In this document: positions 1 through 17,132 of the stretch, piece after piece
Layout: each line of letters opens with the position of its first letter
Position numbering within the stretch: position 1 is the stretch's first letter
NCBI GenBank assembly: GCA_028719205.1
Contig: JAQUKH010000010.1
Coordinates: forward strand, 53,440-73,439
DNA length: 20,000 bases
Reading direction: 5' to 3'
Source: a bacterium
Lineage (GTDB): Bacteria > JACRDZ01 > JAQUKH01
The notes under the pieces: generated by a model
The model's database searches: none
What the model saw: only the letters and a program-made list of their open reading frames with translations
Told to the model about the DNA's origin: nothing
Made by a program: the position numbers and the translations under genes

Positions 1-1305
1 ATATTGGATAAAGGGAATATTCCTGTTTTCGCGTGCGACCGGGATGAGACGCATCCGGTAATAGCTGGCGGAGGTGTATGCGCTTTTTTGAATCCTGAGC
101 CAGTCGCGGATTTTTTTGATTATTTTGTGATAGGCGAGGCGGAGGAAGTTTTAAGCAGGCTTATCGATATTTATGATAAAAATTATTCCGGCGGGTTTAA
201 AACAAAGAAAGAACGTGAATCGTATTTAATTGAGATCTCAAAAATTGAAGGGGTTTATGTCCCGCAGTTTTATAACTTTGTTTATAACAATAAAAATGAG
301 ATAACATCGGTAGAAGTACAAAAAGGCGCGCCGTCCAAAATAAAAAGGCTTTATATCAAGGACCTGGACAGCTTGCCGATCCTGCCGCAGATAACCAGCC
401 CGCATCTGGAATTCGGTGATATGTTCCTTTTAGAGGTCGGGAGGGGATGTCCCTTTCAGTGTAATTTCTGCGGGGCGACTTCTGTTTATAAGCCGTACCG
501 TTTTAGAAGTTTGGAGACAATAAAAAAGATCGTCAGAGGCCAGAAAGGGATAAAAACATTCGGTTTAATAAGCCCGGCTGTATCATGTTATCCAAAAATG
601 GAGGAGCTCTTCGAGCTTTTCTATTCGGAAAAAGCCAAAACGTCCTTTTCTTCGTTGAGAATAGATAAAATTGATGATAAATTGGCCCTTCTGCTGTCTG
701 AAAATAATCAGAGCACTATAACCCTGGCCCCTGAATGCGGCTCACAGCGCATGAGAAATATGGTTAATAAAAAAATAGAAGAAGAAGATATTCTTATGGC
801 CATTGAAAACCTGGCTAAGCATAAAATAAAGAATATTAAACTGTATTTTATGATAGGGCTTCCTGAGGAAAAACCGGAGGATATTGAGGCCATTTATGCC
901 TTGACACAAAAAATCAGGGATGTTACAATAACTGTTTATAAAAAGACGAAATATCTAACTAAAATAACGATCCATATTACTCCTTACGTTCCAAAGCCTC
1001 ATACCCCGTGGCAGGATATAAGTATGAGCGATGAGGAGGATTTAAGATCAAAATTGCATTTTTTACATAAATCTGTTTCAGAACTTGGATCGATCAAACT
1101 GGAAGCGGAAGATGTGAAAAACGCGATTTTGCAGTCAGTATATTCCAGAGGGGACAGGAAATTAGCCGAATTTATTATTGCGTTATCCCGTTCGGAAAAT
1201 AAGAACTGGAAAATAGCAGGCAAAAAATCAGGTTTTGCCTGGCAAAGATATTTATCAACGGAGCACTATGGTAAAATTTTGCCATGGGAACTCATAAGTG
1301 AATAG
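1..1305 (+). CDS. Radical SAM Fe-S protein (TIGR03960/YgiQ-like), 5'-truncated by window
   Basis: Frame open from base 1; CxxxCxxC motif in EVGRGCPFQCNFC; FLNPEPVADFFD..IGEAE, SLRID, TLAPECGSQRMR, LYFMIGLP and PYVPKPHTPWQ segments typical of this family. Confidence 0.85.
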   Translation: MLDKGNIPVFACDRDETHPVIAGGGVCAFLNPEPVADFFDYFVIGEAEEVLSRLIDIYDKNYSGGFKTKKERESYLIEISKIEGVYVPQFYNFVYNNKNEITSVEVQKGAPSKIKRLYIKDLDSLPILPQITSPHLEFGDMFLLEVGRGCPFQCNFCGATSVYKPYRFRSLETIKKIVRGQKGIKTFGLISPAVSCYPKMEELFELFYSEKAKTSFSSLRIDKIDDKLALLLSENNQSTITLAPECGSQRMRNMVNKKIEEEDILMAIENLAKHKIKNIKLYFMIGLPEEKPEDIEAIYALTQKIRDVTITVYKKTKYLTKITIHITPYVPKPHTPWQDISMSDEEDLRSKLHFLHKSVSELGSIKLEAEDVKNAILQSVYSRGDRKLAEFIIALSRSENKNWKIAGKKSGFAWQRYLSTEHYGKILPWELISE

Positions 1306-1324
1306 TTGACAGTGAATAGCCGAT
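1297..1324 (+). repeat. Degenerate heptamer tandem repeat (4 units)
   Basis: agtgaat-agttgac-agtgaat-agccgat; overlaps the TAG stop (1303-1305) of the radical SAM gene. Confidence 0.5.
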
Positions 1325-1354
1325 ATTAAAATTTAAAGGTTTAAATACTAAACT

Positions 1355-2743
1355 ATGGCTCAGATATTCAAAAGACGAATTGAGAATAGAAATCAGCATA
1401 TGATCTTTTTTACCAGTATGGTTATCCTTTTCATTACTGGTTATTTTAAGAGCGTTCCTAAATCATGGCTGCATTATCTTGGAAATACTACTTTGTTCTG
1501 GTCGCAGTTCAGCGCGATTTTGCACAGGTTAGCCGCGATAGCCTTCATAGTTTCCTCCCTTTACCATTTGAAGTTTTTGTTTATGAGTTCAGATGGGCGG
1601 TCTAATTTTAAAAATCTTATTTTTACCAAACAGGATATAGTTGATTTTTTTATACATGTTTTTTCCTCGCTTGGCCTTACTAAGAAAAAACTTATCAGAA
1701 AACGTTATTATTATAATGAAAAATGTGACTACTGGATCATGTTCCAGGGAACAATAATTTTTATTATTACCGGGACGATCCTCTGGCTGGAGGAATATTT
1801 CGGGAAATTTGCCATAGATATTTCTTATATACTTCATAATAAGGAGGCACTATGGGGAGTTTATGCTATTGTAGTCTGGCACTTTTTCAATCTTCATCCG
1901 GAATTTTATCTTTACGCGCGCGAGGACGCGCAGCCCTGCGGGCGTGATGAATGTGTATTTTGCGGCATTTGTGACTTATTGACCCAGGATAAAGACAGCC
2001 TTAATGTATTCCTCAGCGGCGATCAAAAGGTAGACGGCCTGACAAAAACATATACCCTTAATTTATGTATCGGCGATATGCTGACAAGGGCTAATAAGCT
2101 TAGGGAAAAGGGTATTACGTCCTGCAAGGAGGGTGTAGCAGTTTTAGCCGCTGATACAACGGTTTGTCAGTATGGCTGTATCGGCCTCGGTGATTGTGTG
2201 TTAGCCTGCAGGACGCATGCCAGGTATTTTGACGACAAAGGAAGAGGGATGGTAGACAATTCAAAATGTACCGGGTGCGAAGAGTGCATAAAGATTTGCC
2301 CGCGGAATCTTATTATCATGTATCCTAAGGAAAAACGTGTTCATATTCCTTGTAATTCGCTGGATAAAGGCACAAAGGTCAGAGAAGTATGCGCTGTCGG
2401 GTGTTTAGGCTGCGGGATATGCGTCAAGTTCTGTCCTGTTCAGGCTATTACACTCTCAAATAATCTGGCAAAAATTGATTATTCAAAATGTATTGAATGC
2501 GGTATTTGCGCGGTTAAATGCCCTCACAAAACTATTGTGGATACCACGGGCCCGAGGGCAAAAGTTAATATTCTGACAAAAGATTGTACGGGGTGTTCCG
2601 AGTGCGTGAAAGTTTGTCCTGTTAAGGCCATCCAGCCGGATACCGCGAACGCGGGTAAATTTATAGTGCTGGAAGATAAATGTATCGGATGCAAGGTTTG
2701 TATCGATAAATGTCCCACCAAATGTATTAAAATTAAATCATAG
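1355..2743 (+). CDS. Fusion of membrane cytochrome b (FdnI/CbcL-like) and RnfB-like polyferredoxin
   Basis: Residues 1-181: about four hydrophobic helices with His15, His57, His71, His161, His176 and the motif RYYYNEKCDYW..GT....TG..LW..H..EA.....VWHF. C-terminus: GITSC..CQYGCIGLGDCVLAC and CNSLDKGTKVREVCAVGCLGCGICVKFCP as in clostridial RnfB; five canonical CxxCxxCxxxCP motifs plus one variant. Confidence 0.8.
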   Translation: MAQIFKRRIENRNQHMIFFTSMVILFITGYFKSVPKSWLHYLGNTTLFWSQFSAILHRLAAIAFIVSSLYHLKFLFMSSDGRSNFKNLIFTKQDIVDFFIHVFSSLGLTKKKLIRKRYYYNEKCDYWIMFQGTIIFIITGTILWLEEYFGKFAIDISYILHNKEALWGVYAIVVWHFFNLHPEFYLYAREDAQPCGRDECVFCGICDLLTQDKDSLNVFLSGDQKVDGLTKTYTLNLCIGDMLTRANKLREKGITSCKEGVAVLAADTTVCQYGCIGLGDCVLACRTHARYFDDKGRGMVDNSKCTGCEECIKICPRNLIIMYPKEKRVHIPCNSLDKGTKVREVCAVGCLGCGICVKFCPVQAITLSNNLAKIDYSKCIECGICAVKCPHKTIVDTTGPRAKVNILTKDCTGCSECVKVCPVKAIQPDTANAGKFIVLEDKCIGCKVCIDKCPTKCIKIKS

Positions 2744-2768
2744 AGATGCCCGATTCGGACGTTTCTAT
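2740..2768. repeat. Degenerate REP-like palindrome
   Basis: ATAGAGATGCCCG-ATT-CGGACGTTTCTAT: 13-position stem with 2 G-T wobbles and 1 mismatch; resembles GTAGAGACGC..GCGTCTCTAC-type REPs; overlaps the TAG stop at 2741-2743. Confidence 0.55.
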
Positions 2769-2776
2769 AAATAAAA

Positions 2777-4339
2777 ATGTCCACTAAAAATCATCTTATC
2801 AAATCAACAACGATTATCAGCCTGAGCACGGTCTTGAGCCGGATTTTCGGGTTTATACGCGATATGGTTATAGCTAAATTTCTCGGGACCGGGATGCTCG
2901 CGGATGTGTTCCTGGCAAGCTTCGGAATCCCCAACATGATGAGGCATTTAATGGGTGAGGGTGTTCTCAGCGCGGGATTAGTTCCGGTTTTTACTGAATC
3001 TATTGAAAAAAATACAAGAGAAGAAACTAACTTGTTAATGAGCAGTTTTTTATGGATAGTTTTGATATTTTCAATTTTGGTTACTGTAATATTTATTATT
3101 TTTACTCCCTTTCTGGTAAGAATGATCCTTCCTGGTTTTATTTCTTCTCCTGAAAAAATGGAATTAACTATTAAAATAACCCGATGGTTAATACCTTACC
3201 TGATATTTATCGGCGTTTCATCATGTATGATAGGAATGCTTCATTCGTACAAATATTTTTTTGTTCCCGCGATCTCCCCCGCCGTTTTTAATTTTGGGAT
3301 TGTTATTTCATCCTTGTTTTTTGGGATTCTTTTCGATCAGCCGTTGAAAGGAATAGTAGCCGGTGTGCTTATAGGCGGTTTTATGCAGATCATGATCCAA
3401 TGGCCGATGCTGGTTCATATTGGATTTAAAATGAAGTTTGTTTTCTGGCATCCCGCGATAAAGAGGATTTTAAAAATGATCGGGCCGGCTATTTTTGCCT
3501 TGGCGGTAACAGAGATAAATATTACGATCACAAGGATTTTTGCCTCATCAGGACAGTTGGCCGGGGAGGGGGCAATTTCCATTTTATATTACGCGAACAG
3601 GTTGATCCAGTTGCCGATGGGGATTTTTACGATAGCTATCTCGACAGCTATTTTACCTACACTTTCCAGCCAGTTTATTGAAGGAGATATTGAGAAAGCA
3701 AAACTTACTATTTTATACGCGTTCCGGTTTTCTTTGTTTATAGTCATTCCTGCCACAGTGGGGCTTATTGTTTTGCGTGTCCCTATTATCCGTCTTTTGT
3801 TTGAAAGGGGCGCGTTCGGCCCGGGCGCGACCCATGATACCGCTATGGCGCTTTTATTCTACAGCCTGGGTATATTAGGTTATGTCGGCGTAAAAATAAT
3901 TATCCCGGTATTTTATTCATTAGAAGATACATTCACCCCCGCGAAAATCGCGTTACTTATATTAGTTATCAGCGTCTTTCTGGATTTTATTTTGGTCCGG
4001 TTAATGAGATTTTCGGGCCTGGCGCTCAGCATTTCTGTTTCAAATTTTATCCAACTTGGTTTTTTGATTTTCTTTTTAAAAAATAAAATCGGCCCGCTGG
4101 GATTAAAAAAGATGGTTATGCCTTTTATAAAAGTTGTAATGATCTCTTTTTTTATGGGCGCGGCCTGTTATTTGTTAATTAATTTTATCGAGAAATTCAT
4201 TGTTTTGAATTTAATAAATCAGATTTTTGAAGTAGGATTTTGTATTGCCGCGGGTATTATAATATTTTTTGGTTTATGTTATATTTTTAAACTTAAAGAA
4301 ATGGAGATCATTGGCGAAATAATTAGCAGAAAACGTTAA
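2777..4339 (+). CDS. murJ: Lipid II flippase MurJ (MviN)
   Basis: SRIFGFIRD, IPNMMRHLMGEG, YYANRLIQLPMGIF, LFERGAF; 520 aa polytopic membrane protein. Confidence 0.96.
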   Translation: MSTKNHLIKSTTIISLSTVLSRIFGFIRDMVIAKFLGTGMLADVFLASFGIPNMMRHLMGEGVLSAGLVPVFTESIEKNTREETNLLMSSFLWIVLIFSILVTVIFIIFTPFLVRMILPGFISSPEKMELTIKITRWLIPYLIFIGVSSCMIGMLHSYKYFFVPAISPAVFNFGIVISSLFFGILFDQPLKGIVAGVLIGGFMQIMIQWPMLVHIGFKMKFVFWHPAIKRILKMIGPAIFALAVTEINITITRIFASSGQLAGEGAISILYYANRLIQLPMGIFTIAISTAILPTLSSQFIEGDIEKAKLTILYAFRFSLFIVIPATVGLIVLRVPIIRLLFERGAFGPGATHDTAMALLFYSLGILGYVGVKIIIPVFYSLEDTFTPAKIALLILVISVFLDFILVRLMRFSGLALSISVSNFIQLGFLIFFLKNKIGPLGLKKMVMPFIKVVMISFFMGAACYLLINFIEKFIVLNLINQIFEVGFCIAAGIIIFFGLCYIFKLKEMEIIGEIISRKR

Positions 4340-5205: not shown

Positions 5206-5739
5206 GTGAAAAAATTATTAACTTTTATAATTGCCGGAATCAGCGTTATATTTTTATCATGCGGAAAAGATGAAAAAATTTCTTTCGTAGAAAATAAAGT
5301 AAAGGGGCCGCAGTTAGTAATTGACAAATTTTCGATCACTGCCACGAACATGGGTAAAACGGAATGGATATTTCACGCGCGGAAGGCTGTAGTTTTTGAA
5401 GATAAAAATTTAATTGATGCTGATGAAATAAATATTGATTTTTTTATTGATAAAAAAGGGGAGGAGATATCTTCTCATTTAGTTGCCATAAAGGGAAACG
5501 TTAATACCAAGACTAATGATATGGAAGCAGTGGGAGCAGTTGTTTTAACTTCCGGAAGCGGCAATACATTATTTACAGAAAAAGTAAAGTGGCTTTCCGC
5601 AGCTCAAAAGTTTTTTACTGAGGAAGCGGTTAAAGTAGAAAAAAAAGACAGCATAATAACAGGTATCGGCATGGAGGCGGATCCGAATTTAGAAAATGTC
5701 AGGATCTTTAAGGATGTTAAAGTAGAGGCTAAAGAATGA
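5206..5739 (+). CDS. lptC: LPS export protein LptC, predicted lipoprotein
   Basis: GTG start; signal peptide ending FLS-C19; beta-jellyroll pattern (LFTEKVKW, FFTEEAVKV, ITGIGMEAD); lies directly before lptA-lptB. Confidence 0.85.
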   Translation: MKKLLTFIIAGISVIFLSCGKDEKISFVENKVKGPQLVIDKFSITATNMGKTEWIFHARKAVVFEDKNLIDADEINIDFFIDKKGEEISSHLVAIKGNVNTKTNDMEAVGAVVLTSGSGNTLFTEKVKWLSAAQKFFTEEAVKVEKKDSIITGIGMEADPNLENVRIFKDVKVEAKE

Positions 5740-6506
5740 CCATAGAAAAAAAGTTTTACAGTATTTATTGGGTAATATTATTTCTATTATTTTCATTTTC
5801 TGTAAGAGCGGAAGTGGTTGTTGATGATAATAAAAAAAAGGATAAAATAAACATAAAATCGGACAAGGTTGAGTATAATTTCAAAGAGGGAGAAGAAATC
5901 GCTGTTTTTACTGGTTCAGTTGAAATGAAAAAAGGAGACCTGACTGTTTATTCAGACAAAATGCAGATGTATTCACAGGGCAAAAAGGTTATCGGGGATG
6001 ATAATGTTAAGATCATTGTTGATAATGAAAAGGAAAACAGGGTTATGACTAGCGGGTATTATGAATATCACCGCGATGATGAATATGGTATACTTAAAAT
6101 AAATCCCAAAATGGTCATAATTAATAAAAAACAAAGTTCCGAGAAAAATAATGAAAATAAAGACAAAAAAAACGTGAAAGATTTTAAAAATTTAACTGTT
6201 ACAAGCGATGTTATGGAAATGTTCTCTAAAGAAGGTTATTCTAAAGCAATAGGGAAGGTTGTAATGGAAGAAGGAGACCGTAAGGCTTATTGTGATGAGG
6301 CTATATACTACGAGAAAGAAGATAAAGTTGTAATGACCGGTTCTCCCAGGATAGAGCAAAAAGATAATGTGTTCAATGGAGAAAAAATGATATTTTTCCT
6401 GAATGATAATAGATTAATTATTGAAGGAAAAGTCGAAGGGACAATTTTAGAAGAGGATAAAAAAAATAAAGAAGAAAAGAAAGCGGGCGATAAAATTGAG
6501 CAGTAA
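5736..6506 (+). CDS. lptA: LptA/OstA-family periplasmic LPS transport protein (long form)
   Basis: Signal peptide (VRA/E); [48 protein letters not shown] overlap with lptC and upstream of lptB. Confidence 0.85.
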
Positions 6507-7221
6507 ACTTAAGACAAGTAATCTGGCAAAATCATACGGGAAAAGAAAAGTAGTTAAAAATGTAAGTGTGGAAATAAACGAAGGTGAAATAGTCGGGCTT
6601 CTTGGCCCAAATGGGGCAGGCAAGACTACTACATTTTACATGACGCTCGGGTTAATAAAACCGGAAGCGGGAAATATCTTTTTAAATGATGAAGATATAA
6701 CCAACCTGCCCACATATAAAAGAGCAAGAAAAGGTATTAATTATTTGCCTCAAGAACCGTCCGTTTTCAGAAATTTAACAGTAGAAGACAATATCCGGGC
6801 TATTTTGGAATTTAATGAAACAAGTAAAACAAAAATTGAAAATCGGCTGGATAATTTATTGAAGGAATTCAGCCTGGATCATCTTAGAAGTAATTATGGG
6901 TATGCTCTTTCCGGCGGGGAAAGAAGGAGGGTTGAGATAGCAAGGTCATTAGCCTGTAATCCATCTTTTGTCCTGTTGGATGAGCCTTTTTCCGGGATCG
7001 ATCCGATTGCCGTTCTGGATATTCAGAAATTGATATATAAATTAAAAGAAAAAGGGATCGGGGTCCTGATCACGGATCATAATGTCAGGGAAACATTAGC
7101 TATAACGGACCGGGCATATATTATTGCCGCGGGAGAGATCCTGGTGTCCGGAACCGCTCAGGAACTGCTTTGCAGCGAGCAGGCCAGGAAAATTTATTTG
7201 GGCGAGAGTTTTAAGATGTAG
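6496..7221 (+). CDS. lptB: LPS export ABC transporter ATPase LptB
   Basis: TTG start; [59 protein letters not shown]. Confidence 0.97.
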
Positions 7222-7228
7222 GGAAAAT

Positions 7229-8626
7229 ATGAAAACAGGGCTTTACCAGACTATATCGCCAAAATTAGTATTAACGCCGAGATTGCAGCAGGCAATAAGT
7301 TTGCTGCAAATGTCGAATCTGGAATTGCTTTTTCATATCAGGCAGGAAATGATCCTCAATCCCTTTTTGGAAGAAGCAGCTGTTGAAGAAAATACTGAAG
7401 AAGAAAAAAAGACACAGAATGATGAAACTCTCATGGAAAATGAGAAAGAAGAAAGCGATGAAAATTTAAAGATAGAAGATTGGCAGGAATTAATTGAAAA
7501 CAATGGTGTATCATATGAAGCAAAAGATAAGATAGATTTTTTCGAAAAACCAATTGAAAATAAAACCAGTTTAATTCAGCATCTGATGTGGCAGCTGCAA
7601 ATGAGCAGGTTAACACCGGATGAGCGTTTACTGGGTGAGATAATAATCAGTGAAATTGATGAAAAAGGATATTTAAGGATTTCTCTTGAAGAATTAGCGA
7701 AAGCAGCCGATGTTCCTATTAAAGATATGGAGAGAGTTTTAAAGGTTATCCAGACATTTGAACCGGCTGGTGTGGGCGCGAGAGACCTTAAGGAATGTTT
7801 ATTACTGCAGTTAGGAGACAGGTCGGAAAATGAGAAAACAGCTAAGATATTATTAGAAGATTATCTGGAGGAAATCGAAAATAAGAATTACGGTAAAATA
7901 GCGGAAGATATAAATAAAAGTCTGGAAGAAGTGGAGAGAGCCGCTGATCTGATATCAAGTTTGAATCCTTATCCGGGAAGTGTTCTGGAAGAGATAAATA
8001 ATTTTTATATTGTGCCTGATGTTATTGTGGACAAGGTGGAAAATGAATATGTAGTTACTGTTAATGACGATCGTTTGCCGAATTTAGGTTTAAATAAATA
8101 TTATTTGAAGTTGCTGAAAAATAAAGAGAAACCATCTGATGTTTCGGAATTTCTGTCTAAAAAATTCCAGTCAGCTAATTGGCTGCTCAGCTGCATAGAG
8201 CAAAGACGGATGACTTTACTTCAAATTACGAAAGCGGTAGTAAAAAAACAGTATGAATTTTTTGAGAAAGGCTTAGAATACCTTTGTCCATTAAATCTAA
8301 AACAGATAGCGGATATAGTTGATATGCACGAATCTACCGTAAGCCGGACGGTGAGCAATAAATATGTCCAGACACCGAGGGGCATATTTGAATTAAAATT
8401 TTTCTTTTTGAAAGGTTTTAACACGATAGATAATGGATCGGTTCCGACTTTAATGGTTAAGGAATCAGTCAGGGACATAATAAAAAATGAAGTTACACCT
8501 TTAAGCGATGAAGAAATAGCAATTATATTAAAACAAAGGGGGATCAATATAGCCCGCAGGACCGTGAGCAAATACAGGGATGAGTTGAAGATCCCTACTT
8601 TAAATAAAAGAAAAGTCACGAAGTGA
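7229..8626 (+). CDS. rpoN: RNA polymerase sigma-54 factor
   Basis: Region I LTPRLQQAISLLQM, PAGVGARDLKECLLLQ, MHESTVSR, RpoN box ARRTVSKYR; start moved to ATG 7229, just after the lptB stop. Confidence 0.97.
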   Translation: MKTGLYQTISPKLVLTPRLQQAISLLQMSNLELLFHIRQEMILNPFLEEAAVEENTEEEKKTQNDETLMENEKEESDENLKIEDWQELIENNGVSYEAKDKIDFFEKPIENKTSLIQHLMWQLQMSRLTPDERLLGEIIISEIDEKGYLRISLEELAKAADVPIKDMERVLKVIQTFEPAGVGARDLKECLLLQLGDRSENEKTAKILLEDYLEEIENKNYGKIAEDINKSLEEVERAADLISSLNPYPGSVLEEINNFYIVPDVIVDKVENEYVVTVNDDRLPNLGLNKYYLKLLKNKEKPSDVSEFLSKKFQSANWLLSCIEQRRMTLLQITKAVVKKQYEFFEKGLEYLCPLNLKQIADIVDMHESTVSRTVSNKYVQTPRGIFELKFFFLKGFNTIDNGSVPTLMVKESVRDIIKNEVTPLSDEEIAIILKQRGINIARRTVSKYRDELKIPTLNKRKVTK

Positions 8627-8636
8627 CCACTTCGTG
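8617..8636. repeat. Perfect 9-bp inverted repeat at the rpoN/hpf junction
   Basis: CACGAAGTG-AC-CACTTCGTG; covers the rpoN TGA and ends just before the hpf SD (AAAGGAG 8638-8644). Confidence 0.7.
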
Positions 8637-8650
8637 GAAAGGAGACATTA

Positions 8651-8974
8651 ATGGAAATAAGAATTACAGGCAGGCACGTTCAGGTGACAAACGCGATGAA
8701 AGATTATGTCGAAAAAAAACTATCTCATTTAGAGACGTATTTTAATCATATTATTGAAGCTCATGTGATTATGGATATCGAAAAAAAGAACAGGCATAAA
8801 ATAGAAGTTGTTTTGCATACAAATGTCGGGAAACTTTTCGGCGAGGAAGAAACAGAAGATATGTACGCGTCTATCGACCTTGTGCTTGAAAAGCTGGAAG
8901 TGCAGTTGAAACGTCAAAAAGAAAAGGTACAGGAACATAAAATAAAGAAAGATATGAAACAAGCAGAAATGTAA
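8651..8974 (+). CDS. hpf: Ribosome hibernation promoting factor (short HPF/RaiA)
   Basis: ITGRHVQVTNAMKDYVEKKL, DMYASIDLVLEKLEVQLKRQKEK; SD present; follows rpoN. Confidence 0.95.
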   Translation: MEIRITGRHVQVTNAMKDYVEKKLSHLETYFNHIIEAHVIMDIEKKNRHKIEVVLHTNVGKLFGEEETEDMYASIDLVLEKLEVQLKRQKEKVQEHKIKKDMKQAEM

Positions 8975-9012
8975 AAACAAAAATATTAACATTTGGTATG
9001 GAGGGTTTTAAG

Positions 9013-9477
9013 ATGAAACTGATGGATTTTCTTGATAAAAGAGCAATTATTCCTGTTTTAGAGAAAAAAAACAAAGAAGAAGTTATTGAAGAGATGGTTG
9101 GGAAGTTAGTAGCTTTAGGTGAGATCAAAAACAGCGAAGAAACAGTTAAAATTTTATTGGAAAGGGAAAAACTGGGAAGTACCGGGATTGGTGAGGGAGT
9201 AGCTATTCCTCACGGCAAATCAAAAGATGTTAAGAAGATCACGGCTGTTTTCGCGAAATCCAAAGATGGAGTTGACTTCGAAGCGCTGGATGGTGAACCG
9301 GTGTATTTATTTTTTCTACTGGTTGCCCCTGAGAGTTCCACCAGTGAACATATTAAAGCATTGGCAAGGATTTCCAGATTGCTGAAGGATTCTAATTTCA
9401 GAAAAAAATTAAAGATGAAGCAAACAGTTGAAGAAATTTTATTCGCGATCTCAGAAGAGGATACAAGGCAGCCGTAA
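9013..9477 (+). CDS. ptsN: PTS EIIA (Ntr/Fru family)
   Basis: LEREKLGSTGIGEGVAIPHGK (phospho-His), GVDFEALDGEPVYLFFLL, HIKALARISR; GGAGG at 9000-9004 favours ATG 9013. Confidence 0.9.
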   Translation: MKLMDFLDKRAIIPVLEKKNKEEVIEEMVGKLVALGEIKNSEETVKILLEREKLGSTGIGEGVAIPHGKSKDVKKITAVFAKSKDGVDFEALDGEPVYLFFLLVAPESSTSEHIKALARISRLLKDSNFRKKLKMKQTVEEILFAISEEDTRQP

Positions 9478-9540
9478 GCAAGTTATTCAGCCAAAGACGT
9501 TTGTCATAAGTAAAAAATCAAATAACAGAAAAGGGATTTG

Positions 9541-10422
9541 ATGCAGAAATTTAAATTTGTTATTGTAACAGGATTATCCGGCGCAGGGAAAACTCAGGCG
9601 GTTCATATATTTGAGGATTTGGGTTTTTTCTGCATAGATAATCTGCTTCCGGTTTTAATTCCGGAATTTATACAGATATGCCAAAAGTCAAAAGATAAAT
9701 TATTGAAAGTGGCTATTGTTGTTGATATCCGTGGAAGGAAATTTTTTGGCGGGCTGCAGGATGTTCTTTATAAATTAGATGACACCGGTTTTAAATATGA
9801 AATACTTTTTATTGAGGCCTCTGATAGTGTTATTTTAAAAAGATTTAAAGAGACGAGAAGAGAACATCCGTTAGGCGGCCGCCGTACAATTGAAGAGAAT
9901 ATTGAACTTGAGAGGTCTTATTTAGAACGGGTCAGGGGAAAATCCAAAAAAGTCATTAACACATCCAATCTAAGCCTTAAGGAATTCAGGGAAGAGATAA
10001 TAAATGGGTTTTTGAGAGAAAAAAAATCTAATAAAATTAATTTTTATATAACTGCTTTTGGTTATAAATACGGTTTGCCGCAGGATGCGGATCTGGTTTT
10101 TGATGTTCGTTTTTTACCTAATCCGTTCTATGTTGCCAAACTTAAACATTATTCAGGTGAAAATCAAAGCGTGCGAAATTTTGTTTTAAAATCAAAGAAA
10201 ACAAAAGATTTTCTGAAAAGTTTATTTATATTTATTGATAAAATGGTTTCATTCTATCTGACAGAAGACAGAATGCATGTTGATATAGCTATTGGTTGTA
10301 CCGGGGGGAAACACAGGTCAGTTGTCATAAGCACTGAACTAAAAAAATATCTTACCAGACAAAATCATAAAGTAAATATTGTCTGTCGTGATATGAATAA
10401 AGAATATAAAAGGATGTTTTAA
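9541..10422 (+). CDS. rapZ: RapZ/YvcJ P-loop protein
   Basis: TGLSGAGKT, FCIDNL, RFKETRREHPL, FGYKYGLP, FDVRFLPNPFY, GCTGGKHRSV. Confidence 0.96.
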   Translation: MQKFKFVIVTGLSGAGKTQAVHIFEDLGFFCIDNLLPVLIPEFIQICQKSKDKLLKVAIVVDIRGRKFFGGLQDVLYKLDDTGFKYEILFIEASDSVILKRFKETRREHPLGGRRTIEENIELERSYLERVRGKSKKVINTSNLSLKEFREEIINGFLREKKSNKINFYITAFGYKYGLPQDADLVFDVRFLPNPFYVAKLKHYSGENQSVRNFVLKSKKTKDFLKSLFIFIDKMVSFYLTEDRMHVDIAIGCTGGKHRSVVISTELKKYLTRQNHKVNIVCRDMNKEYKRMF

Positions 10423-11706
10423 GTGAAGAGGCTAAAGTGGCTTTATCCGGGAATGGGTATAAAACGCTGGTTTTCTCTCCTGGCTATCGGAATATTTTTT
10501 ATCGGAGTAAGCATGTCCAATCCATTCCGCAGGATGACAGTTTTTTTGTTTCCGGAGGACTCATATTTTTTTACTAAAAGGAATTTGTTATTTCTTGGTT
10601 TAGGGATTATTTTTGTTATTCTTGGTATCAGGAAGCTTATTAAATCTTTAACGAGTATATTCCTTCCTCAGAAAGAGGATACCCTGGTTGATATAGTTTT
10701 TGAAAATAGACAGCTTAAAAAAGGCCCCAGGATAGTAGTTATCGGCGGGGGAACAGGGATGCCTGTTTTATTGCGGGGGCTAAAGGAATATACAAGCAAT
10801 ATAAGCGCGGTCGTTACTGTGGCCGATGATGGAGGAAGTTCAGGGAAACTTAGAGAGGGATTGAAGATCCTGCCTCCGGGTGATATCCGAAATTGCCTGG
10901 TTTCTCTGGCAGATTCAGCTCCTTTAATGGGGAATTTATTTCAGTATAGATTTGGCAAAGATACTGGTTTGGATGGCCACAGTTTTGGGAATATTTTTAT
11001 CGCGGCAATGTCTGAAGTTACAGGTGATTTTAGTGAAGCGGTTAAAGAGTCAAGCCGTGTTTTGGCTATCAGAGGAAGTGTTATTCCGGTTACTTTGGAT
11101 GACGTGCAGATAGGCGCGCGTATGAAAGACGGCAGAGAGGTGATCGGAGAAAGTAAAATATCAAAAAGCGCGGGTGGTATCGGCAGGATCTTTACAAGGC
11201 CCGAGGAAATATTTCCTGCAAAGGACGCTTTAAAAGCTATTGAAGAGGCTGAAGTAATTATTTTAGGCCCGGGTAGTTTGTATACAAGTATTATCCCAAA
11301 TCTTCTTGTTAAAGGGATTCCTGAGGCAATTGAAAGATCGGAAGCGGTGAAAATTTATGTTTGCAATATAATGACTCAACCTAATGAGACAGACGGATTT
11401 TCAGTTGGAGACCACTTGCAGGCAATAAAAGATCACGTTAATAATTATTTGGCTGAATATGTAATAGTCAATAATGGAGTGATCACAAAAGATATTTTGC
11501 AAAGATACAAGGAGGAAGGGGCGTATCCTGTAAACCTGGATAGAAAAAGAATAGAAAAAATGGGAATAAAAATAATTGAAGATGATTTGTTAACCATAGA
11601 AAAGGAAGAACCTATCGCGGGGAATTTAATAAGGCATAATTCTAATAAAATAGCATACTTGGTTCTTCGCCTGATAATGAATGCGAAATATATTAATAAA
11701 ATATGA
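10423..11706 (+). CDS. yvcK: YvcK/GlmR (CofD-like) protein with N-terminal membrane segments
   Basis: GTG start; KWLYPGMGIKRW leader with two hydrophobic stretches; IGGGTG, VTVADDGGSSG, PPGDIRNC, GHSFGN, LGPGSLYTSIIPNL, NIMTQPNET, RH. Confidence 0.93.
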   Translation: MKRLKWLYPGMGIKRWFSLLAIGIFFIGVSMSNPFRRMTVFLFPEDSYFFTKRNLLFLGLGIIFVILGIRKLIKSLTSIFLPQKEDTLVDIVFENRQLKKGPRIVVIGGGTGMPVLLRGLKEYTSNISAVVTVADDGGSSGKLREGLKILPPGDIRNCLVSLADSAPLMGNLFQYRFGKDTGLDGHSFGNIFIAAMSEVTGDFSEAVKESSRVLAIRGSVIPVTLDDVQIGARMKDGREVIGESKISKSAGGIGRIFTRPEEIFPAKDALKAIEEAEVIILGPGSLYTSIIPNLLVKGIPEAIERSEAVKIYVCNIMTQPNETDGFSVGDHLQAIKDHVNNYLAEYVIVNNGVITKDILQRYKEEGAYPVNLDRKRIEKMGIKIIEDDLLTIEKEEPIAGNLIRHNSNKIAYLVLRLIMNAKYINKI

Positions 11707-11987
11707 GTACTAATAAAATGAAGCAAGAAAAAAAACTGGAAATAAAAAATAAACTGGGATTGCACGCGAGGCCGGCCGCGCAATTGGTTCAGATGATAAA
11801 ACAGCATAAATCAGAGGTTTTCATTGAAAAAAACGGCGAAGTTGTTGACGGCAGGAGTATTCTTAGTGTATTGGCTTTGGCAGGAGAACCCGGAAGCGCG
11901 TTGAAATTTATAATAAGCGGCCAGGATTCGACTGAATTAATGAATAAAATAGAAGCATTTTTCCAAAATAGATTTAATGAGGAGTAG
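11703..11987 (+). CDS. ptsH: Phosphocarrier protein HPr
   Basis: NKLGLHARPAA (His15 equivalent) and DGRSILSVLAL (Ser46 equivalent, +31 residues); alternative start at 11718. Confidence 0.95.
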   Translation: MSTNKMKQEKKLEIKNKLGLHARPAAQLVQMIKQHKSEVFIEKNGEVVDGRSILSVLALAGEPGSALKFIISGQDSTELMNKIEAFFQNRFNEE

Positions 11988-11993
11988 CTCTCA

Positions 11994-13757
11994 ATGGAAA
12001 ATAATTTTAAAGGTATTCCAGCCTCTCCCGGAATAATTTCAGGGAAGGCATTTGTTATAGACAGGGATAATTTTGTTATTGAAAAGAAGAAAATTATTCA
12101 GGGCCAGATAAAAAATGAACTTTTACGGCTGAACAGGGCTGTTGTTAATACTAAGAGAGAAATATTTGAATTAAAAGAAAGGCTTTCAAAAGAATTAGGC
12201 GATTCGGAAGCCAGGATTTTTGACGCTCATCTTTTGATCCTGGAAGATCCGGTTTTTACCAAGGATATTATAGATAAAATAGAAAAAGAAAAACTGTCGG
12301 CAGAATACGCCTTGAGTGAAATTTTAGAGAAGACAGCGCTGGTTTTTGAAAAAATCAATGATATATATTTAAAGGAACGCAGCGCGGACCTGAAGGATGT
12401 AGGAAGAAGGCTGATACATAATCTTCTGGGATATAAGAAAAGGACTATTTCCGAACTGGATAAGAAAGTTATAATTATCGCGCATGATATTTCGCCGTCT
12501 GATACAGCCTCAATGAAAAAAGATAAAGTCATTGGTTTCGCGACAGATATCGGAGGCCAGACATCGCATACCGCGATCATCGCGCGGTCACTTGCGATTC
12601 CCGCGGTGGTAGGTTTAAGGAACATAATCGGGAGTGTTAAAACCGGAGATGAGGTTCTTATAGATGGTAATCAGGGGATTGTTATTATTGAACCTTCGGA
12701 TAAGACCTTAAAGGCTTATCAGTCTATTAAGAAGAAATTTCAGGTTTTTGAAAAAGAGTTGAAAAAGGTAACAAAATTACCGGCTGAAACGCAGGATGGG
12801 CATAGCGTTGAGCTTGTGGGTAATATTGAATCTCCCGAGGAAATTGATACGGTTTTAGCGCATGGAGGTGAAGGGATAGGGCTTTTCCGGACAGAGTTCC
12901 TTTATTTAAACCGCAATAATTTGCCGACTGAAGAAGAACAGTTCGAGGTATATAAAAAAGCTGCGGAAAAGGTCGGCGCGAGGCCTATAATTATCCGCAC
13001 GCTTGATATAGGTGGGGATAAATTTATTTCTTACATGGATATATCTCCTGAGGTTAATCCTTTTTTAGGATTAAGGGCGATCCGTCTTTGCCTGGAGCAT
13101 CCGGAAATTTTTAAAGTACAATTAAGGGCGATCCTAAGGGCAAGTGCTTTTGGACAAATTAAAATTATGTTTCCTATGATCTCAGGTTTATCCCAGCTTA
13201 AAGAGGCGAAACGGATCTTAAATGAAGTAAAGGAAGGTTTAGAAAAAGATAAGATCGGTTATGATAAAGATATGGAGTTAGGCGTAATGGTGGAAACTCC
13301 TTCGGCCGCGGTCATAGCGGATATTCTGGCAAAGGAAGTTGATTTTTTCAGCATCGGTACCAATGACCTGATCCAATACACCCTGGCGGTGGAACGTACC
13401 AATGAAAAGATCGCTTACCTTTATGAACCGCTTCATCCAGCGATAATAAGATTATTAAAAAATATTATTGACGCGGGGCATAAAGAGGGTATCTGGGTTG
13501 GTTTGTGCGGAGAAATGGCCAGTATCCCTTTATTTGTTATCATACTTCTGGGTATGGGACTGGATGAATTCAGCACAAATATTGTTTCACTCCCGCTCGT
13601 GAAAAAGATCATCAGATCAACTACTTATCGTGACGCGAAAATCCTGGTTGATAATATAATGGGATTATCTTCCTCAGTGGAAATACGTAAATATATCCAG
13701 GATAATTTAACTAATGTAATAAAAGAGGAATTAATTACAGGAGAAAAAACAAAATGA
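11994..13757 (+). CDS. ptsI: PTS enzyme I
   Basis: GIPASPGI, GGQTSHTAI (phospho-His), GIGLFRTEF, RTLDIGGDK, NPFLGLRAIR, SIGTNDLIQY, GLCGEMA; no GAF domain. Confidence 0.97.
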   Translation: MENNFKGIPASPGIISGKAFVIDRDNFVIEKKKIIQGQIKNELLRLNRAVVNTKREIFELKERLSKELGDSEARIFDAHLLILEDPVFTKDIIDKIEKEKLSAEYALSEILEKTALVFEKINDIYLKERSADLKDVGRRLIHNLLGYKKRTISELDKKVIIIAHDISPSDTASMKKDKVIGFATDIGGQTSHTAIIARSLAIPAVVGLRNIIGSVKTGDEVLIDGNQGIVIIEPSDKTLKAYQSIKKKFQVFEKELKKVTKLPAETQDGHSVELVGNIESPEEIDTVLAHGGEGIGLFRTEFLYLNRNNLPTEEEQFEVYKKAAEKVGARPIIIRTLDIGGDKFISYMDISPEVNPFLGLRAIRLCLEHPEIFKVQLRAILRASAFGQIKIMFPMISGLSQLKEAKRILNEVKEGLEKDKIGYDKDMELGVMVETPSAAVIADILAKEVDFFSIGTNDLIQYTLAVERTNEKIAYLYEPLHPAIIRLLKNIIDAGHKEGIWVGLCGEMASIPLFVIILLGMGLDEFSTNIVSLPLVKKIIRSTTYRDAKILVDNIMGLSSSVEIRKYIQDNLTNVIKEELITGEKTK

Positions 13758-14797
13758 TCAAAATAAAAGAATTTGATAAATCCAATTTGTTTGATATATT
13801 AAAAAATTTTTCGAAAATATGGGAACACGCGAATGAAATCGGAAGAAAATTTGAAATTGATAATAAATATTTTAAGGAAATAGAGAAAATAGTCATATGC
13901 GGAATGGGCGGGTCAGCTATCGGCGGGGATATTATAAGGGAATACGCGGAGACTAATTCCTCTATTCCTGTTTTTGTGGACAGGAATTATATACTGCCTA
14001 AATATGTAAACAATAAAACTTTATTAATTATGATCAGTTATTCCGGAAATACCGAAGAAACATTGAGCGTGTTTCGTGAAGCCGGCCGGACAGGAGCGAA
14101 AATGATCGGATTAAGTTCAGATGGGAAATTGTCTGAATTCTGCAACAGGGAAAAGGTTCCGTTTGTTTTGATCCCGTCAGGATATTCTCCAAGGGCTATT
14201 CTGCCTTATCTTTTCCTGCCGATCTTAATTATTCTGGAAAAGTTAAAAATCATTCCGGATCAAAGCGGCCCGGTTAAAGAGGTTTTTGATGTGCTTAATG
14301 AAATGTCCGGGGAATTGTCTGTTGCTGATAAAAACAAGGCATTAGACCTCGCAAAGAAATGCCGGGGCGGTGTTCCTATAATTTGTTCAAGCCAGAATTT
14401 TTCATCTCTCGCGCTTCGCTGGAAGACGCAGATAAACGAGAACAGCAAGGCTCCAGCGTACGCCCAGTTCTTTCCTGAATTAAATCATAATGAGATCGTA
14501 GGGTGGGAAGGGAATACTATAATAGATAAAAAATTTGAATTTATTTTCCTGAAAACCGCTTTGGAGCATCCCCGTATCAACCTTCGGATGGAAATAACAA
14601 AAGACATCCTGAAACAGAAAAATCTTTACGCGAATGAGATTTCAGGAAGAGGCCGCGAACTGCTTTCCCAGATGGTTTCCATTATTTATTTCGGAGACTG
14701 GGTAAGCTTTTATCTCGCGATCCTGAATGAAGTCGACCCGTCACCGGTAAAGATCATCACATTCCTGAAAAATGAATTAGGGAAGGTTGCCTTATAA
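13754..14797 (+). CDS. Bifunctional phosphoglucose/phosphomannose isomerase (SIS family)
   Basis: GMGGSAIGGD, SYSGNTEETL, PRA, RWKTQINENSK, PELNHNEI, GDWVSFYLA..VDPSPV..I..LK. Confidence 0.92.
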   Translation: MIKIKEFDKSNLFDILKNFSKIWEHANEIGRKFEIDNKYFKEIEKIVICGMGGSAIGGDIIREYAETNSSIPVFVDRNYILPKYVNNKTLLIMISYSGNTEETLSVFREAGRTGAKMIGLSSDGKLSEFCNREKVPFVLIPSGYSPRAILPYLFLPILIILEKLKIIPDQSGPVKEVFDVLNEMSGELSVADKNKALDLAKKCRGGVPIICSSQNFSSLALRWKTQINENSKAPAYAQFFPELNHNEIVGWEGNTIIDKKFEFIFLKTALEHPRINLRMEITKDILKQKNLYANEISGRGRELLSQMVSIIYFGDWVSFYLAILNEVDPSPVKIITFLKNELGKVAL

Positions 14798-14808
14798 ATA
14801 AAATATTC

Positions 14809-14837
14809 TTGACTGCCGTAATTTTGTTTGGGATAAT
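14809..14837 (+). promoter_or_regulatory. Sigma70-type promoter for the toxin-antitoxin pair
   Basis: TTGACT-N17-GATAAT with TGn extension at 14829-14830. Confidence 0.6.
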
Positions 14838-14885
14838 AAAGCTTAGATTTTGATTTTACCAGATATCAAAAAGGATTTTTGGAAT

Positions 14886-15173
14886 ATGACGCTCACATTT
14901 GAATGGGATGAGGCCAAAGCAATAGTTAATTTCAAAAAGCATAAAGTTAGTTTTGATGAAGGTAAAACGATTTTTAATGACCCATTTTTATTTACATTTC
15001 CTGATAATGAACATTCTATAGGCGAAGAGCGTTACATAAATATCGGCATTTCTGTAAAAGGGCGTATTTTAATTTTGACTAATACTGAACGAAAGGATAG
15101 AATACGTATTATCAATTGTAGAAAAGCAACAGCGAGCGAAAGGAGATTTTATGAAGAAGGCAGTTCCAAATAA
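14886..15173 (+). CDS. brnT: BrnT-family toxin (RelE-like RNase)
   Basis: FEWDEAKA..NFKKHKVSFDE, HSIGEERY..IG, RIRIINCRKATASERRFYE. Confidence 0.92.
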   Translation: MTLTFEWDEAKAIVNFKKHKVSFDEGKTIFNDPFLFTFPDNEHSIGEERYINIGISVKGRILILTNTERKDRIRIINCRKATASERRFYEEGSSK

Positions 15174-15456
15174 TACATTAAAAAAAGACGATTTAAAAGC
15201 GGAATATAATTTTTCCAATATGAAAGGGGCGGTGCGTGGAAAATATTATAAAGCGTATCGTGAAGGACATAATGTAATCATTCACCAAACCGACGGATCT
15301 GTTTCAGTTAAATATTTTAAGCTTGAGGATGGCGCAGTTATGATAGAGCCTGATGTTAAAAAATATTTTCCAAATTCGGAATCAGTAAACAAAGCCCTCA
15401 GGTCTCTTATAGATATTGTTTCATCAAAAAACTGGGCATCTGCACATACCAAGTAA
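15151..15456 (+). CDS. Putative cognate antitoxin (BrnA-like)
   Basis: Overlaps the brnT 3' end, SD AGGAG; DDLKAEYNFS..GAVRGKY and IEPDV..YFPNSESVNKALRSL pattern typical of BrnT partners. Confidence 0.75.
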   Translation: MKKAVPNNTLKKDDLKAEYNFSNMKGAVRGKYYKAYREGHNVIIHQTDGSVSVKYFKLEDGAVMIEPDVKKYFPNSESVNKALRSLIDIVSSKNWASAHTK

Positions 15457-15558
15457 TTATAACACCTAATTAAGAATTGTTTCTGTTTTTCATCTGTGAA
15501 TAAATAAATATTTCAACAGTATTTCGTTTTATCTTTTACTTCTGGAAATAAGGAATGA

Positions 15559-15887
15559 GTAATTTTGTTTTTATTAAAAGATAAAGTTGGTTTGAAAGAT
15601 TATTCTTTTTTTAAGCGAAATAATTATACTGGTAATGTGTTAATACTGATTCATTTCCTTCACTTAAAGCAATGATGTATACTGTTTTTTATAAATTTTA
15701 TCCTGATCAAAGAAAACCAATATTATCAGATGTTTATGATATTATTATATCTTCATTATTACCTTATGTTGATTGCTTTATTACTGAAGGACATCAATTT
15801 GATGCTATTCAAAAAATAAAAAAAGTTGATAGTTTTTTAGATCATCTCGAAGTAAAATCAATAAAAGAATTTTTGAAACAATCTTAA
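15559..15887 (+). pseudogene. AT-rich gene remnant, possibly frameshifted
   Basis: The 15672-15887 frame stays open back to 15636 (CVNTDSFPSLKAMMY..); a different frame is open 15559-15675; no SD; protein-like motif SDVYD..LPYVDCFITE. Confidence 0.45.
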
Positions 15888-15989
15888 AATTATGAATGAA
15901 AATATCAGTGGTATTATTTCAAAAATACGCTTGGCTACCATAATTTTGTTTTGGATGATGGAATAGTGTGTAAAAATCGGATAATATTC

Positions 15990-16018
15990 TTGACAAATCC
16001 CATCTAATATATTACAGT
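15990..16018 (+). promoter_or_regulatory. Sigma70-type promoter for the lamin-tail-domain gene
   Basis: TTGACA-N17-TACAGT, 36 nt before ATG 16055. Confidence 0.55.
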
Positions 16019-16054: not shown

Positions 16055-17002
16055 ATGATAAAATTAAACAAAGCATACATTTCCCAATGGATTTTTGTTT
16101 TTGCCCTCCTTACGTCTGCATCCGCCTTTGCCGGAAAAATACGGATCAATGAAATTTATTATGACCCGCCGGGGGTATCTTCAACTGAAGTTGACAGCGA
16201 ATTTATTGAATTGTATGTGGTTGAAGGCGGATTTGACCCTTCGGGGTGGTATCTTCTTGACTGGGACAGCGACCATAAGAAGTGGGCTGTTCCGGATTCA
16301 TGCCCTCAAGTCCAAACAGGCGATTATATTGTTTTTCATTTTGGTAAAGGCGCAAATTATGATTCTTCGGGGGTTTATCATTTTTATATGGGTGAGGCCT
16401 CATCTAAACTTTCAAACAGCGGGGATCCGATCGGGTTGAGGGATGACAAAGATATCCCCCGGGATTTTGTTACTTATAAGGGCGGGACAGACAGTGAACT
16501 TACAGCTAATGATTATTGTTCATGGCCTAATGACGGATTAAAACCTTTAGGTACTGAATTGGAAGTTCCATCTGATTCCGGGTTTTCACTGCAATTTTCC
16601 GGAGATAATATTGATAACAGCAAGAACTGGATAATCGCTGAACCTACCTGCGGGTATGAAAATGTAAAGAAAGAGATCGTTTCAAAACCATCGGATGTTA
16701 CTGATATTTTAGCCTCGCCCCAGCCGTTCATTATAGACGGGTCCGGTGACTTAAAAATAAATTTCAGCCTTACTTACGGGGCTAATGTGACTTTGAGGAT
16801 CTATGATGTCAGGGGCAGGTTGCGTGTAAGTTTAAAAGAAGAAGCATCTTTCCCCGGAGGAGTGAATAGCGTTGACTGGGATGGAAAAGATGAAGAAGGG
16901 CGGGATGTAAAAATGGGGATCTATATCCTTTATATGGAAGTAAGAAGCGAGCAGGGGGTAAGTAGTTTGAAGAAGACGGTTGTGGTAGGAAAAAGAAAAT
17001 AG
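16055..17002 (+). CDS. Secreted lamin-tail-domain protein with C-terminal FlgD-Ig / T9SS-CTD-like domain
   Basis: Signal peptide (ASAFA/G); IRINEIYYDP..SEFIELY, LSNSGDPIGL and PTCGYEN (lamin tail domain); SPQPF..VTLRIYDVRGR..WDGKDEEGRDVKMGIYI..KKTVVV (FlgD-Ig-like). Confidence 0.8.
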   Translation: MIKLNKAYISQWIFVFALLTSASAFAGKIRINEIYYDPPGVSSTEVDSEFIELYVVEGGFDPSGWYLLDWDSDHKKWAVPDSCPQVQTGDYIVFHFGKGANYDSSGVYHFYMGEASSKLSNSGDPIGLRDDKDIPRDFVTYKGGTDSELTANDYCSWPNDGLKPLGTELEVPSDSGFSLQFSGDNIDNSKNWIIAEPTCGYENVKKEIVSKPSDVTDILASPQPFIIDGSGDLKINFSLTYGANVTLRIYDVRGRLRVSLKEEASFPGGVNSVDWDGKDEEGRDVKMGIYILYMEVRSEQGVSSLKKTVVVGKRK

Positions 17003-17030: not shown

Positions 17031-17035
17031 TAAAA

Positions 17036-17068: not shown

Positions 17069-17076
17069 GAATAAAT

Positions 17077-17100: not shown

Positions 17101-17132
17101 AAAATATGGGCACAATAATATTGATCAAATTT

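Follow-up and report, generated by a model that had tools for sequence, protein, structure and literature searches.

The gene at positions 1355..2743 (+ strand) of the window, by which we mean the whole 20,000-nucleotide stretch of contig JAQUKH010000010.1 analyzed here, encodes a 462-residue protein in which a four-helix cytochrome b domain of the FdnI/HyaC/CbcL type is joined in one chain to a cytoplasmic polyferredoxin that resembles the core of RnfB, the established ferredoxin site of the Rnf complex. The fusion is genuine, and its design is rare and retained across one small uncultured bacterial phylum. The most economical reading, to which we would give only just less than an even chance, is that the protein is a single-chain ferredoxin:menaquinone oxidoreductase.

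The open reading frame (ORF; 462 codons plus stop) is unbroken, and an earlier reading made from the sequence alone had already taken it for one uninterrupted protein that joins a membrane domain to a series of Cys motifs. This proves to be a true fusion, as orthologues with 35–87% identity are found in independent assemblies. The phylum of the window comprises six species genomes, five of which contain the full-length fusion; in the sixth, which is 78% complete, only a 268-residue stand-alone cytochrome b is seen. Searching 5.8 billion proteins gave full-length matches at 86% and 79% identity, and an exhaustive search of 1.84 billion representatives gave only P0003 (79%), P0122 (41%) and P0123 (37%) as full-length matches; P0124, also matched in the latter search, turned out to have no b domain. 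The species-genome collection holds the full fusion on three named contigs of metagenome-assembled genomes (MAGs). The window itself comes from a MAG in 68 contigs, which could point to an assembly chimera or, failing that, to a decaying fusion that has no function. We consider the probability of either to be negligible, because five species-level genomes, each from a different assembly, contain this fusion with 35–87% identity, because the 32 candidate cluster Cys residues, all of them, and the heme His residues are kept across the fusions, and because the junction (1884–2129) is bridged, with 28 differences, by a 259-nt contig from a separate study (run X5). A 12.1-kb contig from run X1, possibly the source run itself, covers the fusion gene without gaps and with an identical sequence, and contigs from runs X2 and X4 cover it in part only. 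The chimera at the junction that the sequence-only reading had proposed to look for is therefore not present.

The cytochrome b domain occupies residues 1–186 (1355..1912, +). As a single sequence it matches the Pfam family PF01292 at 22.7 bits over residues 15–176 when the whole protein is used, and at 25.3 bits when the N-terminal domain is used alone; the cut-off of 30.1 is reached in neither case. A profile built from nine N-terminal domains, including those of the window, four locus orthologues or relatives, the genome's own paralogue and P0118, finds FdnI (1kqf_C) with an E value of 5.7e-13 over nearly its whole length and HyaC (4gd3_A) with an E value of 3.1e-6. PF01292 is matched by 9/9 of the aligned members with E values up to 0.01, the best being 4.2e-19. 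P0118 was the sole addition contributed by a search with the N-terminal domain alone, and a search of longer proteins (953–2720 residues) with an alignment as query returned one multiheme protein and nothing else. The AlphaFold2 model (mean predicted local distance difference test score, pLDDT, 85.0; predicted template modeling score, pTM, 0.59) shows four long helices at residues 2–32 (1358..1450, +), 46–77 (1490..1585, +), 120–144 (1712..1786, +) and 151–180 (1805..1894, +). Structural alignment of the b domain with VIA gives Z values of 12.9 to HyaC (4gd3_A), 12.1 to FdnI (1kqf_C) and 10.8 to CybB of E. coli; Z values of this kind do not settle the identity of a helical bundle by themselves, and more weight rests on the sequence profile. 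A true cytochrome b of the FdnI/HyaC type makes up the N-terminal half, and the earlier description of a roughly four-helix FdnI-type membrane domain agrees with both the modeled helices and the profile match.

The likely heme ligands fall at two levels of the bundle. Helix 1 carries H15 at its cytoplasmic end, helix 2 carries H57 at the outer and H71 at the inner level, and helix 4 carries H161 at the outer and H176 at the inner level, with H181 directly after the helix. The spacing of 14 residues between H57 and H71 and of 15 residues between H161 and H176 is as expected for two heme levels. H57, H71, H161 and H181 are invariant in 5/5 fusion sequences, H57 and H71 are also invariant in the 9/9 N-domain sequences, and H15 is present in all full ORFs, where it aligns with the His of the 'CHW' of FdnI. 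We take the heme ligands of FdnI to be H18, H57, H155 and H169; H15, H57 and H161 of the fusion align with FdnI histidines, and H176 lies within one residue of the position of H169. The position of H176, in the window region 1880–1897 (residues 176–181), reads H/H/H/Q/N over the five fusions, so that two of the three fusion lineages have Q or N, and it is His in all aligned bc-type relatives. The FdnI counterpart of H176 is presumably an inner-heme ligand that also contacts the quinone analogue. The combination of invariant H71 and H181 with a variable H176 suggests an altered inner-heme or quinone site in the fusion family. Of the five histidines listed by the sequence-only reading, H15, H57, H71 and H161 are thus retained, while H176 is not conserved family-wide, and the invariant H181 was absent from that list. 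A further conserved element is the opening of helix 3, Y-N-E-K-C-D-Y-W (residues 119–127), in which E122, K123, Y126 and W127 are invariant across the fusions and the bc relatives. This segment aligns with 'YNAGQKMMFW' of FdnI, which we take to be the pocket for 2-heptyl-4-hydroxyquinoline N-oxide.

The C-terminal half, residues 231–460 (2045..2734, +), is an RnfB-like cytoplasmic polyferredoxin core. It contains 28 Cys residues, all of which are invariant in 5/5 fusions, a number that would fit the seven [4Fe-4S] clusters that homology predicts. The Pfam family PF00037 matches this half with an E value of 3.4e-29 in five stretches, and five canonical CxxCxxCxxxC motifs are accompanied by one atypical motif (C271/275/281/285). 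With phmmer, residues 231–460 align with residues 99–327 of RnfB from Acetobacterium woodii (9eri_B) at an E value of 1.7e-39, the Cys residues being in register, and with C. tetanomorphum RnfB at an E value of 4.4e-39. VIA places the model at Z 22.0 to 9eri_B and at Z 21.2, with a root-mean-square deviation of 1.8 Å over 164 residues, to 7zc6_B from C. tetanomorphum. Among the NCBIfam models, residues 232–396 are placed on positions 98–265 of long RnfB models, TIGR01944 (rnfB subfamily) passes its cut-off of 68.7 with 77.2 bits, and NF005503 (an RnfB equivalog) stays below its cut-off of 252 with 146.5 bits. The proposal that the signatures are specific to RnfB and not those of generic ferredoxins is therefore upheld, as evidenced by the A. 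woodii match and the TIGR01944 score. Like the RnfB proteins of 9eri_B and 7zc6_B, the fusion has the cytosolic B1–B7 core with all Cys aligned on the cytoplasmic side, and like the long RnfB forms (~330 residues) it has an additional C-terminal 2×[4Fe-4S] domain.

What the fusion does not take from RnfB is equally well defined. Its RnfB alignments begin at about residue 95–99 of the RnfB chain, residues 1–98 of RnfB (the TM1 helix and the B8 domain) have no counterpart, and PF04060, the B8 domain, has no match in the fusion protein at E values up to 1. RnfB has its own membrane helix and B8/PF04060 domain and is encoded in an rnf operon, whereas the fusion is without these and scores below the equivalog cut-off. 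In the published description of A. woodii RnfB, three parts are distinguished: a helix in the membrane, the mobile B8 domain (residues 30–100) with its single cluster, and a cytosolic part whose clusters B1–B7 lead to B8; the same account has B8 passing electrons to the membrane [2Fe-2S] cluster, the membrane helix and B8 touching the Rnf membrane subunits and holding the terminal cluster, and ferredoxin docking, as proposed there, near B1–B2, the ferredoxin site of Rnf (PMC11889175). RnfB feeds the [2Fe-2S] cluster of RnfA/E, and in the fusion the RnfB core is attached to a diheme cytochrome b instead.

Between the two halves lies a Cys motif, C195-x4-C200-x2-C203-x2-C206 (1937..1972, +), which is invariant in 5/5 fusions, has no family match and brings the total of invariant Cys residues in 5/5 fusions to 32. 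It is a candidate site for an extra metal cluster beside the inner heme. The sequence-only reading had counted six ferredoxin-type Cys motifs, which correspond to the five canonical motifs and the atypical one, and had overlooked this linker motif.

The Fe-S domain is cytoplasmic. Lysine and arginine residues number 4 at the N-terminus, 1 in loop 1–2 and 11 in loop 2–3, and this charge bias places both ends of the b domain inside. A second test rests on relatives in which the same b domain is fused to heme c domains, which are necessarily periplasmic. Exactly one extra hydrophobic segment occurs between an N-terminal heme c domain and core helix 1 in 132/140 relatives, the remaining 8/140 having no extra segment at the threshold used, and exactly one extra transmembrane (TM) segment occurs between helix 4 and a C-terminal heme c domain in 6/6 relatives. 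In the fusion, no additional helix separates helix 4 from the polyferredoxin, which puts the latter in the cytoplasm. The cytoplasmic location inferred earlier from FdnI-like topology thus agrees with both the charge bias and the extra TM segments of the heme c-fused relatives. The sole twin arginine of the fusion is at residue 7, is missing in the 41% and 35% orthologues, and none precedes the last helix. A Sec/Tat dual-targeted polytopic polyferredoxin is ruled out by the four helices and by the lack of a twin arginine before the last of them. In the published account of the NapH-NapG fusion, five TM segments are present, the last of them preceded by a twin-arginine motif, and the Fe-S domain is exported by Tat to the periplasm (PMC5449189). 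That protein is likewise a membrane protein joined to a polyferredoxin, but it has no heme b, and the fusion described here differs from it in having four helices, no twin arginine before the last helix and a cytoplasmic Fe-S domain.

Taken as a ferredoxin:menaquinone oxidoreductase, the gene product would be a single-polypeptide membrane redox enzyme. Reduced ferredoxin from 2-oxoacid:ferredoxin oxidoreductases would dock at the distal clusters, and electrons would pass along the seven-cluster B1–B7-like chain to the lineage-specific four-Cys site at the membrane surface, which would take the place that the membrane helix and the mobile B8 cluster have in RnfB. From this site they would reach the inner, cytoplasmic-side heme of the four-helix diheme cytochrome b and then menaquinone. 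The enzyme would not pump and would work beside Rnf and complex I. We infer the cofactor binding, the direction of electron flow, the ferredoxin donor and the menaquinone acceptor alike. The reading is supported by the role of RnfB as an established ferredoxin site, by the invariant E122/K123/Y126/W127 and by the menaquinone genes of the genome, where MqnA stands beside a UbiA-type prenyltransferase; the presence of MqnA and of UbiA-type prenyltransferases answers the question of quinone synthesis that the sequence-only reading had raised. Two POR_N enzymes (2-oxoacid:ferredoxin oxidoreductases) are also encoded, and NuoH was found for complex I. To our knowledge, the characterized PF01292 proteins are quinone-reactive. 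Menaquinone would be the most likely acceptor, since the cytochromes of the FdnI/CbcL type from which the b domain derives react with quinones and their conserved cytoplasmic-side motif is retained in it.

Several observations weigh against this reading. The single sequence falls short of the gathering score of PF01292, and residues 181–213 have pLDDT <50 in the model with pTM 0.59, so that the linker and the relative placement of the two halves are not confidently modeled. The outer-heme ligands H57 and H161 are invariant, even though a cytoplasmic-side quinone site as in FdnI would leave the outer heme off the path, and conserved outer-heme ligands are a better fit to a transmembrane role. 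The Q or N at position 176 in two of the three fusion lineages indicates that the inner site has been remodeled. Finally, an uncoupled step from ferredoxin to menaquinone would waste roughly 0.35 V that the encoded Rnf and complex I could conserve.

These points bear on the main rival, which we regard as unlikely but well within consideration: that the protein is a transmembrane wire, in which electrons from ferredoxin would pass through the Fe-S chain to the inner heme, the outer heme and then an acceptor in the periplasm that is the product of another gene. Candidates for it are a multiheme cytochrome that supplies extracellular or low-potential acceptors and an enzyme of periplasmic repair or maturation; the logic resembles that of Tmc/Hmc or MsrQ, here in one chain. 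Strict conservation of both heme levels would be explained, as would the loss of H176 in two lineages, which suggests that the FdnI-type quinone contact is dispensable, and the energy wasted in an uncoupled quinone step counts in the same direction. The b domain descends from cytochromes that link the membrane to periplasmic c hemes, the gene stands beside envelope-biogenesis clusters in three lineages, and the genome encodes large multiheme cytochrome clusters (with PF14522 and PF22113 matches), including a 1387-residue protein. However, the fusion has no periplasmic domain and its outer loops are short, no conserved periplasmic partner gene is adjacent in any lineage, the residues of the quinone region remain invariant, and an uncoupled export of electrons would cost membrane potential.

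One of the multiheme loci of the genome, on contig C21 (18000–36000; ORFs 5300–15379), encodes multiheme cytochromes c of 579, 381, 270 and 1387 residues and an NHL-repeat protein. They lie on either side of a 257-residue cytochrome b of PF01292, and the genome has no relative of the b domain besides this one. The cluster resembles a quinol:cytochrome module of the bc type that has been split and would serve extracellular electron transfer.

Electrons might also run the other way, from menaquinol or a periplasmic donor through the b hemes and the Fe-S chain to a soluble cytoplasmic acceptor of moderate potential, rather than to low-potential ferredoxin, in the style of NarI-NarH, DsrMK and HdrED. 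A diheme b with a cytoplasmic polyferredoxin is the layout of quinol-oxidizing respiratory anchors, and the genome encodes periplasmic-type [NiFe] hydrogenase and molybdopterin enzymes, with two [NiFe] large subunits and four molybdopterin enzymes counted. Rnf itself is described as reversible (PMC11889175, PMC9588780). We nevertheless hold this inward supply to be improbable, since no catalytic subunit is fused or adjacent, transfer from menaquinol to ferredoxin would be strongly uphill, inward transfer would oppose the membrane potential, and RnfB-type wires are known as ferredoxin sites (PMC11889175).

The sequence-only reading had offered, as an option, an alternative RnfB that plugs into Rnf and couples it to the quinone pool, and had proposed to look for an rnf operon lacking rnfB. 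The genome does not have such an operon. Contig C52 opens with rnfC, D, G, E and A (1–4186), contig C50 closes with a 269-residue rnfB that has PF04060 (11654–12634), and a 246-nt overlap with 98.8% identity links these contig ends, so that rnfCDGEAB is complete across both. Because this operon is complete with its own PF04060-bearing RnfB, the fusion is very unlikely to serve as a replacement. The TM1 helix and B8 domain, which make the contacts to RnfG and RnfA/E and hold the terminal cluster, are missing from the fusion, and its gene never adjoins rnf genes. The points in favor of this option are the RnfB-like C-terminal half and a description of archaeal Rnf linked to cytochromes and methanophenazine (PMC9012536). 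Downstream of rnfB on contig C50 come a cytochrome c assembly gene (PF01578) and then genes that resemble, by eye, hemA, hemC, hemD and hemB, as well as one for an NHL-repeat multiheme cytochrome.

To place the b domain among its relatives, we collected loci with the motif Y[HN]EK[LC][DE]YW, 80 from species genomes and 80 from metagenomes. Among the genome loci, CxxCH domains are N-terminal in 65, C-terminal in 4 and present at both ends in 2 (71/80 together); 6/80 are without CxxCH, including four truncated at the 5' end, and the Fe-S fusions account for 3/80, all in the phylum of the window. Among the 80 metagenome loci, 72 have an N-terminal CxxCH domain and 8 have none, seven of those being cut, and no Fe-S fusion was found. 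Overall, 143/160 relatives contain CxxCH domains. A metagenome scan with another alignment gave pattern matches and no relative. The b domain of the fusion shares the motif and 25–34% identity with the bc-type relatives. In a quick maximum-likelihood tree of the 80 genome loci, the window and three outgroup rows, arbitrarily rooted and with a thorough search unfinished, the four Fe-S rows form one clade (Shimodaira–Hasegawa-like approximate likelihood ratio test support, SH-aLRT, 97), which adjoins two bc-type rows (SH-aLRT 88). The simplest history is a single event in the phylum, in which a CbcL-like b domain, its heme c domain lost or never present, was joined to an RnfB core. In an Omnitrophota MAG (locus L015, 4686–10351), a 644-residue bc-type cytochrome with 11 CxxCH motifs and the b domain is directly followed by a 1216-residue ORF that resembles, by eye, pyruvate:ferredoxin oxidoreductase, which places the b-domain family again beside ferredoxin metabolism.

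The b domain and the known anchors have much in common. FdnI and HyaC, the anchors of formate dehydrogenase-N and [NiFe] hydrogenase-1, show the same four-helix fold, the four heme-His positions and both ends in the cytoplasm. They are fed by a periplasmic Fe-S subunit, whereas the Fe-S chain of the fusion is joined on the cytoplasmic side, and the fusion differs further in its extra invariant His residues 71 and 181 and an identity of only 18–22%. CbcL is described as a menaquinol-linked HydC/FdnI-like diheme b fused to a nine-heme domain (PMC6295460; 10.1101/2022.08.31.506072). As judged from the motif-sharing loci, the b domain is closest in sequence to the CbcL-type bc-cytochromes of metal reducers, and these contain a periplasmic heme c domain where the fusion has 0 CxxCH motifs and a cytoplasmic polyferredoxin instead. 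The earlier comparison with FdnI and CbcL thus stands as to FdnI-likeness and can be refined, as CbcL-like bc-cytochromes are the closest.

A membrane b cytochrome wired to cytoplasmic Fe-S clusters is a known kind of protein. NarI-NarH, DsrMK, HdrED and the QmoC fusion all wire a diheme b anchor to a cytoplasmic Fe-S chain, QmoC in a single chain. Their b subunits belong to the NarI family (PF02665) and not to PF01292, their Fe-S parts are of the HdrC, HdrD or NarH types, and they work with catalytic partners that are encoded adjacently. PF01292 joined to RnfB as a solitary gene is new: neither this fusion nor a single-chain ferredoxin:menaquinone oxidoreductase is described in the full-text literature searched, which left most subscription journals outside. 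The sequence-only reading, which did not recognize the architecture, was right to that extent, but the combination of a b domain with ferredoxin motifs may not be unique. The nearest cluster in the ESM Atlas consists of unnamed 309-residue 'putative 4Fe-4S binding proteins' (208 members, mostly Thermodesulfobacteriota; PF01292 in 97%, Fer4_10 in 96%), with a score of 0.83 for both the whole protein and residues 1–235; a score <0.9 is a lead only, and the cluster was compared by its description. It has the same two-family combination as the fusion, and being about 150 residues shorter it would have room for at most one dicluster domain and not for the RnfB core. The 160 loci that share the motif include none of its members. 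As this cluster suggests, a shorter fusion of cytochrome b with ferredoxin may exist in Thermodesulfobacteriota.

In anaerobes, the link between reduced ferredoxin and membrane energetics is generally ascribed to complexes of many subunits, such as Rnf, Ech/Mbh and ferredoxin-dependent complex I. Beside the existing routes into the respiratory chain, Rnf plus complex I and ferredoxin-dependent complex I, the fusion may represent a third and minimal one, from the RnfB wire through the two b hemes either to menaquinone or directly to periplasmic cytochromes, bypassing the quinone pool; we put this forward tentatively, as a proposition of somewhat less than even probability. If it is true, a periplasmic outlet would open respiration to acceptors whose potential is too low for menaquinol, and metabolic models of this uncultured, cytochrome-rich phylum would change. 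It would also show modularity, with the RnfB core cut from the pump and grafted on a CbcL-type heme anchor, and would provide a small, expressible test object for electron transfer from ferredoxin to quinone or to the periplasm. The fusion is likewise a candidate part for engineered electron export from ferredoxin-producing metabolism. Should it be merely an uncoupled overflow valve, it would represent a modest, lineage-specific shuffling of domains.

The neighborhood of the gene offers no redox partner. Upstream lies a radical SAM protein (1..1305, +; PF19864, PF04055), whose 5' end is cut by the window, and downstream lies murJ (2777..4339, +; PF03023, E 2.8e-105), followed by kdsA and lptC/A/B. 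The gap between the fusion gene and murJ is 33 nt and contains no terminator-like site; the promoter scan gave 5 promoter-like sites against 5.6 expected, and neither promoter nor terminator counts were above chance. The order in the window is radical SAM, fusion, murJ, kdsA, lptC, lptA, lptB, rpoN, hpf, ptsN and rapZ, continuing with a CofD-family gene, HPr, ptsI, a PGI-type gene and BrnT, with panC and nadA farther along. The 20-kb window is free of rnf, hydrogenase and fdh genes, as the sequence-only reading had stated for the vicinity of the gene. The 41% orthologue (L012) is flanked by genes for an NHL-repeat protein and DUF1385 and by skp, lpxD and lpxC, and the 35% orthologue (L013) by ftsA, ftsZ and truA; the radical SAM neighbor stands beside neither. 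Across the three lineages no redox gene is conserved as a neighbor, and rnf genes are never adjacent. Given these differing neighbors and the lack of a redox partner, the fusion gene is solitary in all three lineages. In each of the five genomes of the phylum that have it, it stands by itself, surrounded by housekeeping genes.

An envelope-biogenesis cluster, different each time, does stand beside the fusion: murJ-kdsA-lptCAB in the window (1355–4339), skp-lpxD-lpxC in L012 (7929–12000), and ftsA-ftsZ, the end of the division cluster, in L013 (4778–9320). This adjacency may be due to chance or may hint at an envelope-related role.

Two further loci in the window deserve mention. At 14850–15456, a BrnT-family toxin gene (PF04365) overlaps a 101-residue ORF without a Pfam match, which is probably a BrnA-type antitoxin, and the pair lies within the stretch of lowest guanine-plus-cytosine content in the window (0.286 at 15001–16000). 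At 16055–17939, a secreted protein of 315 residues with a lamin-tail domain and an FlgD-Ig-like domain is followed by a 297-residue ORF that has no Pfam match and looks like an outer-membrane beta-barrel.

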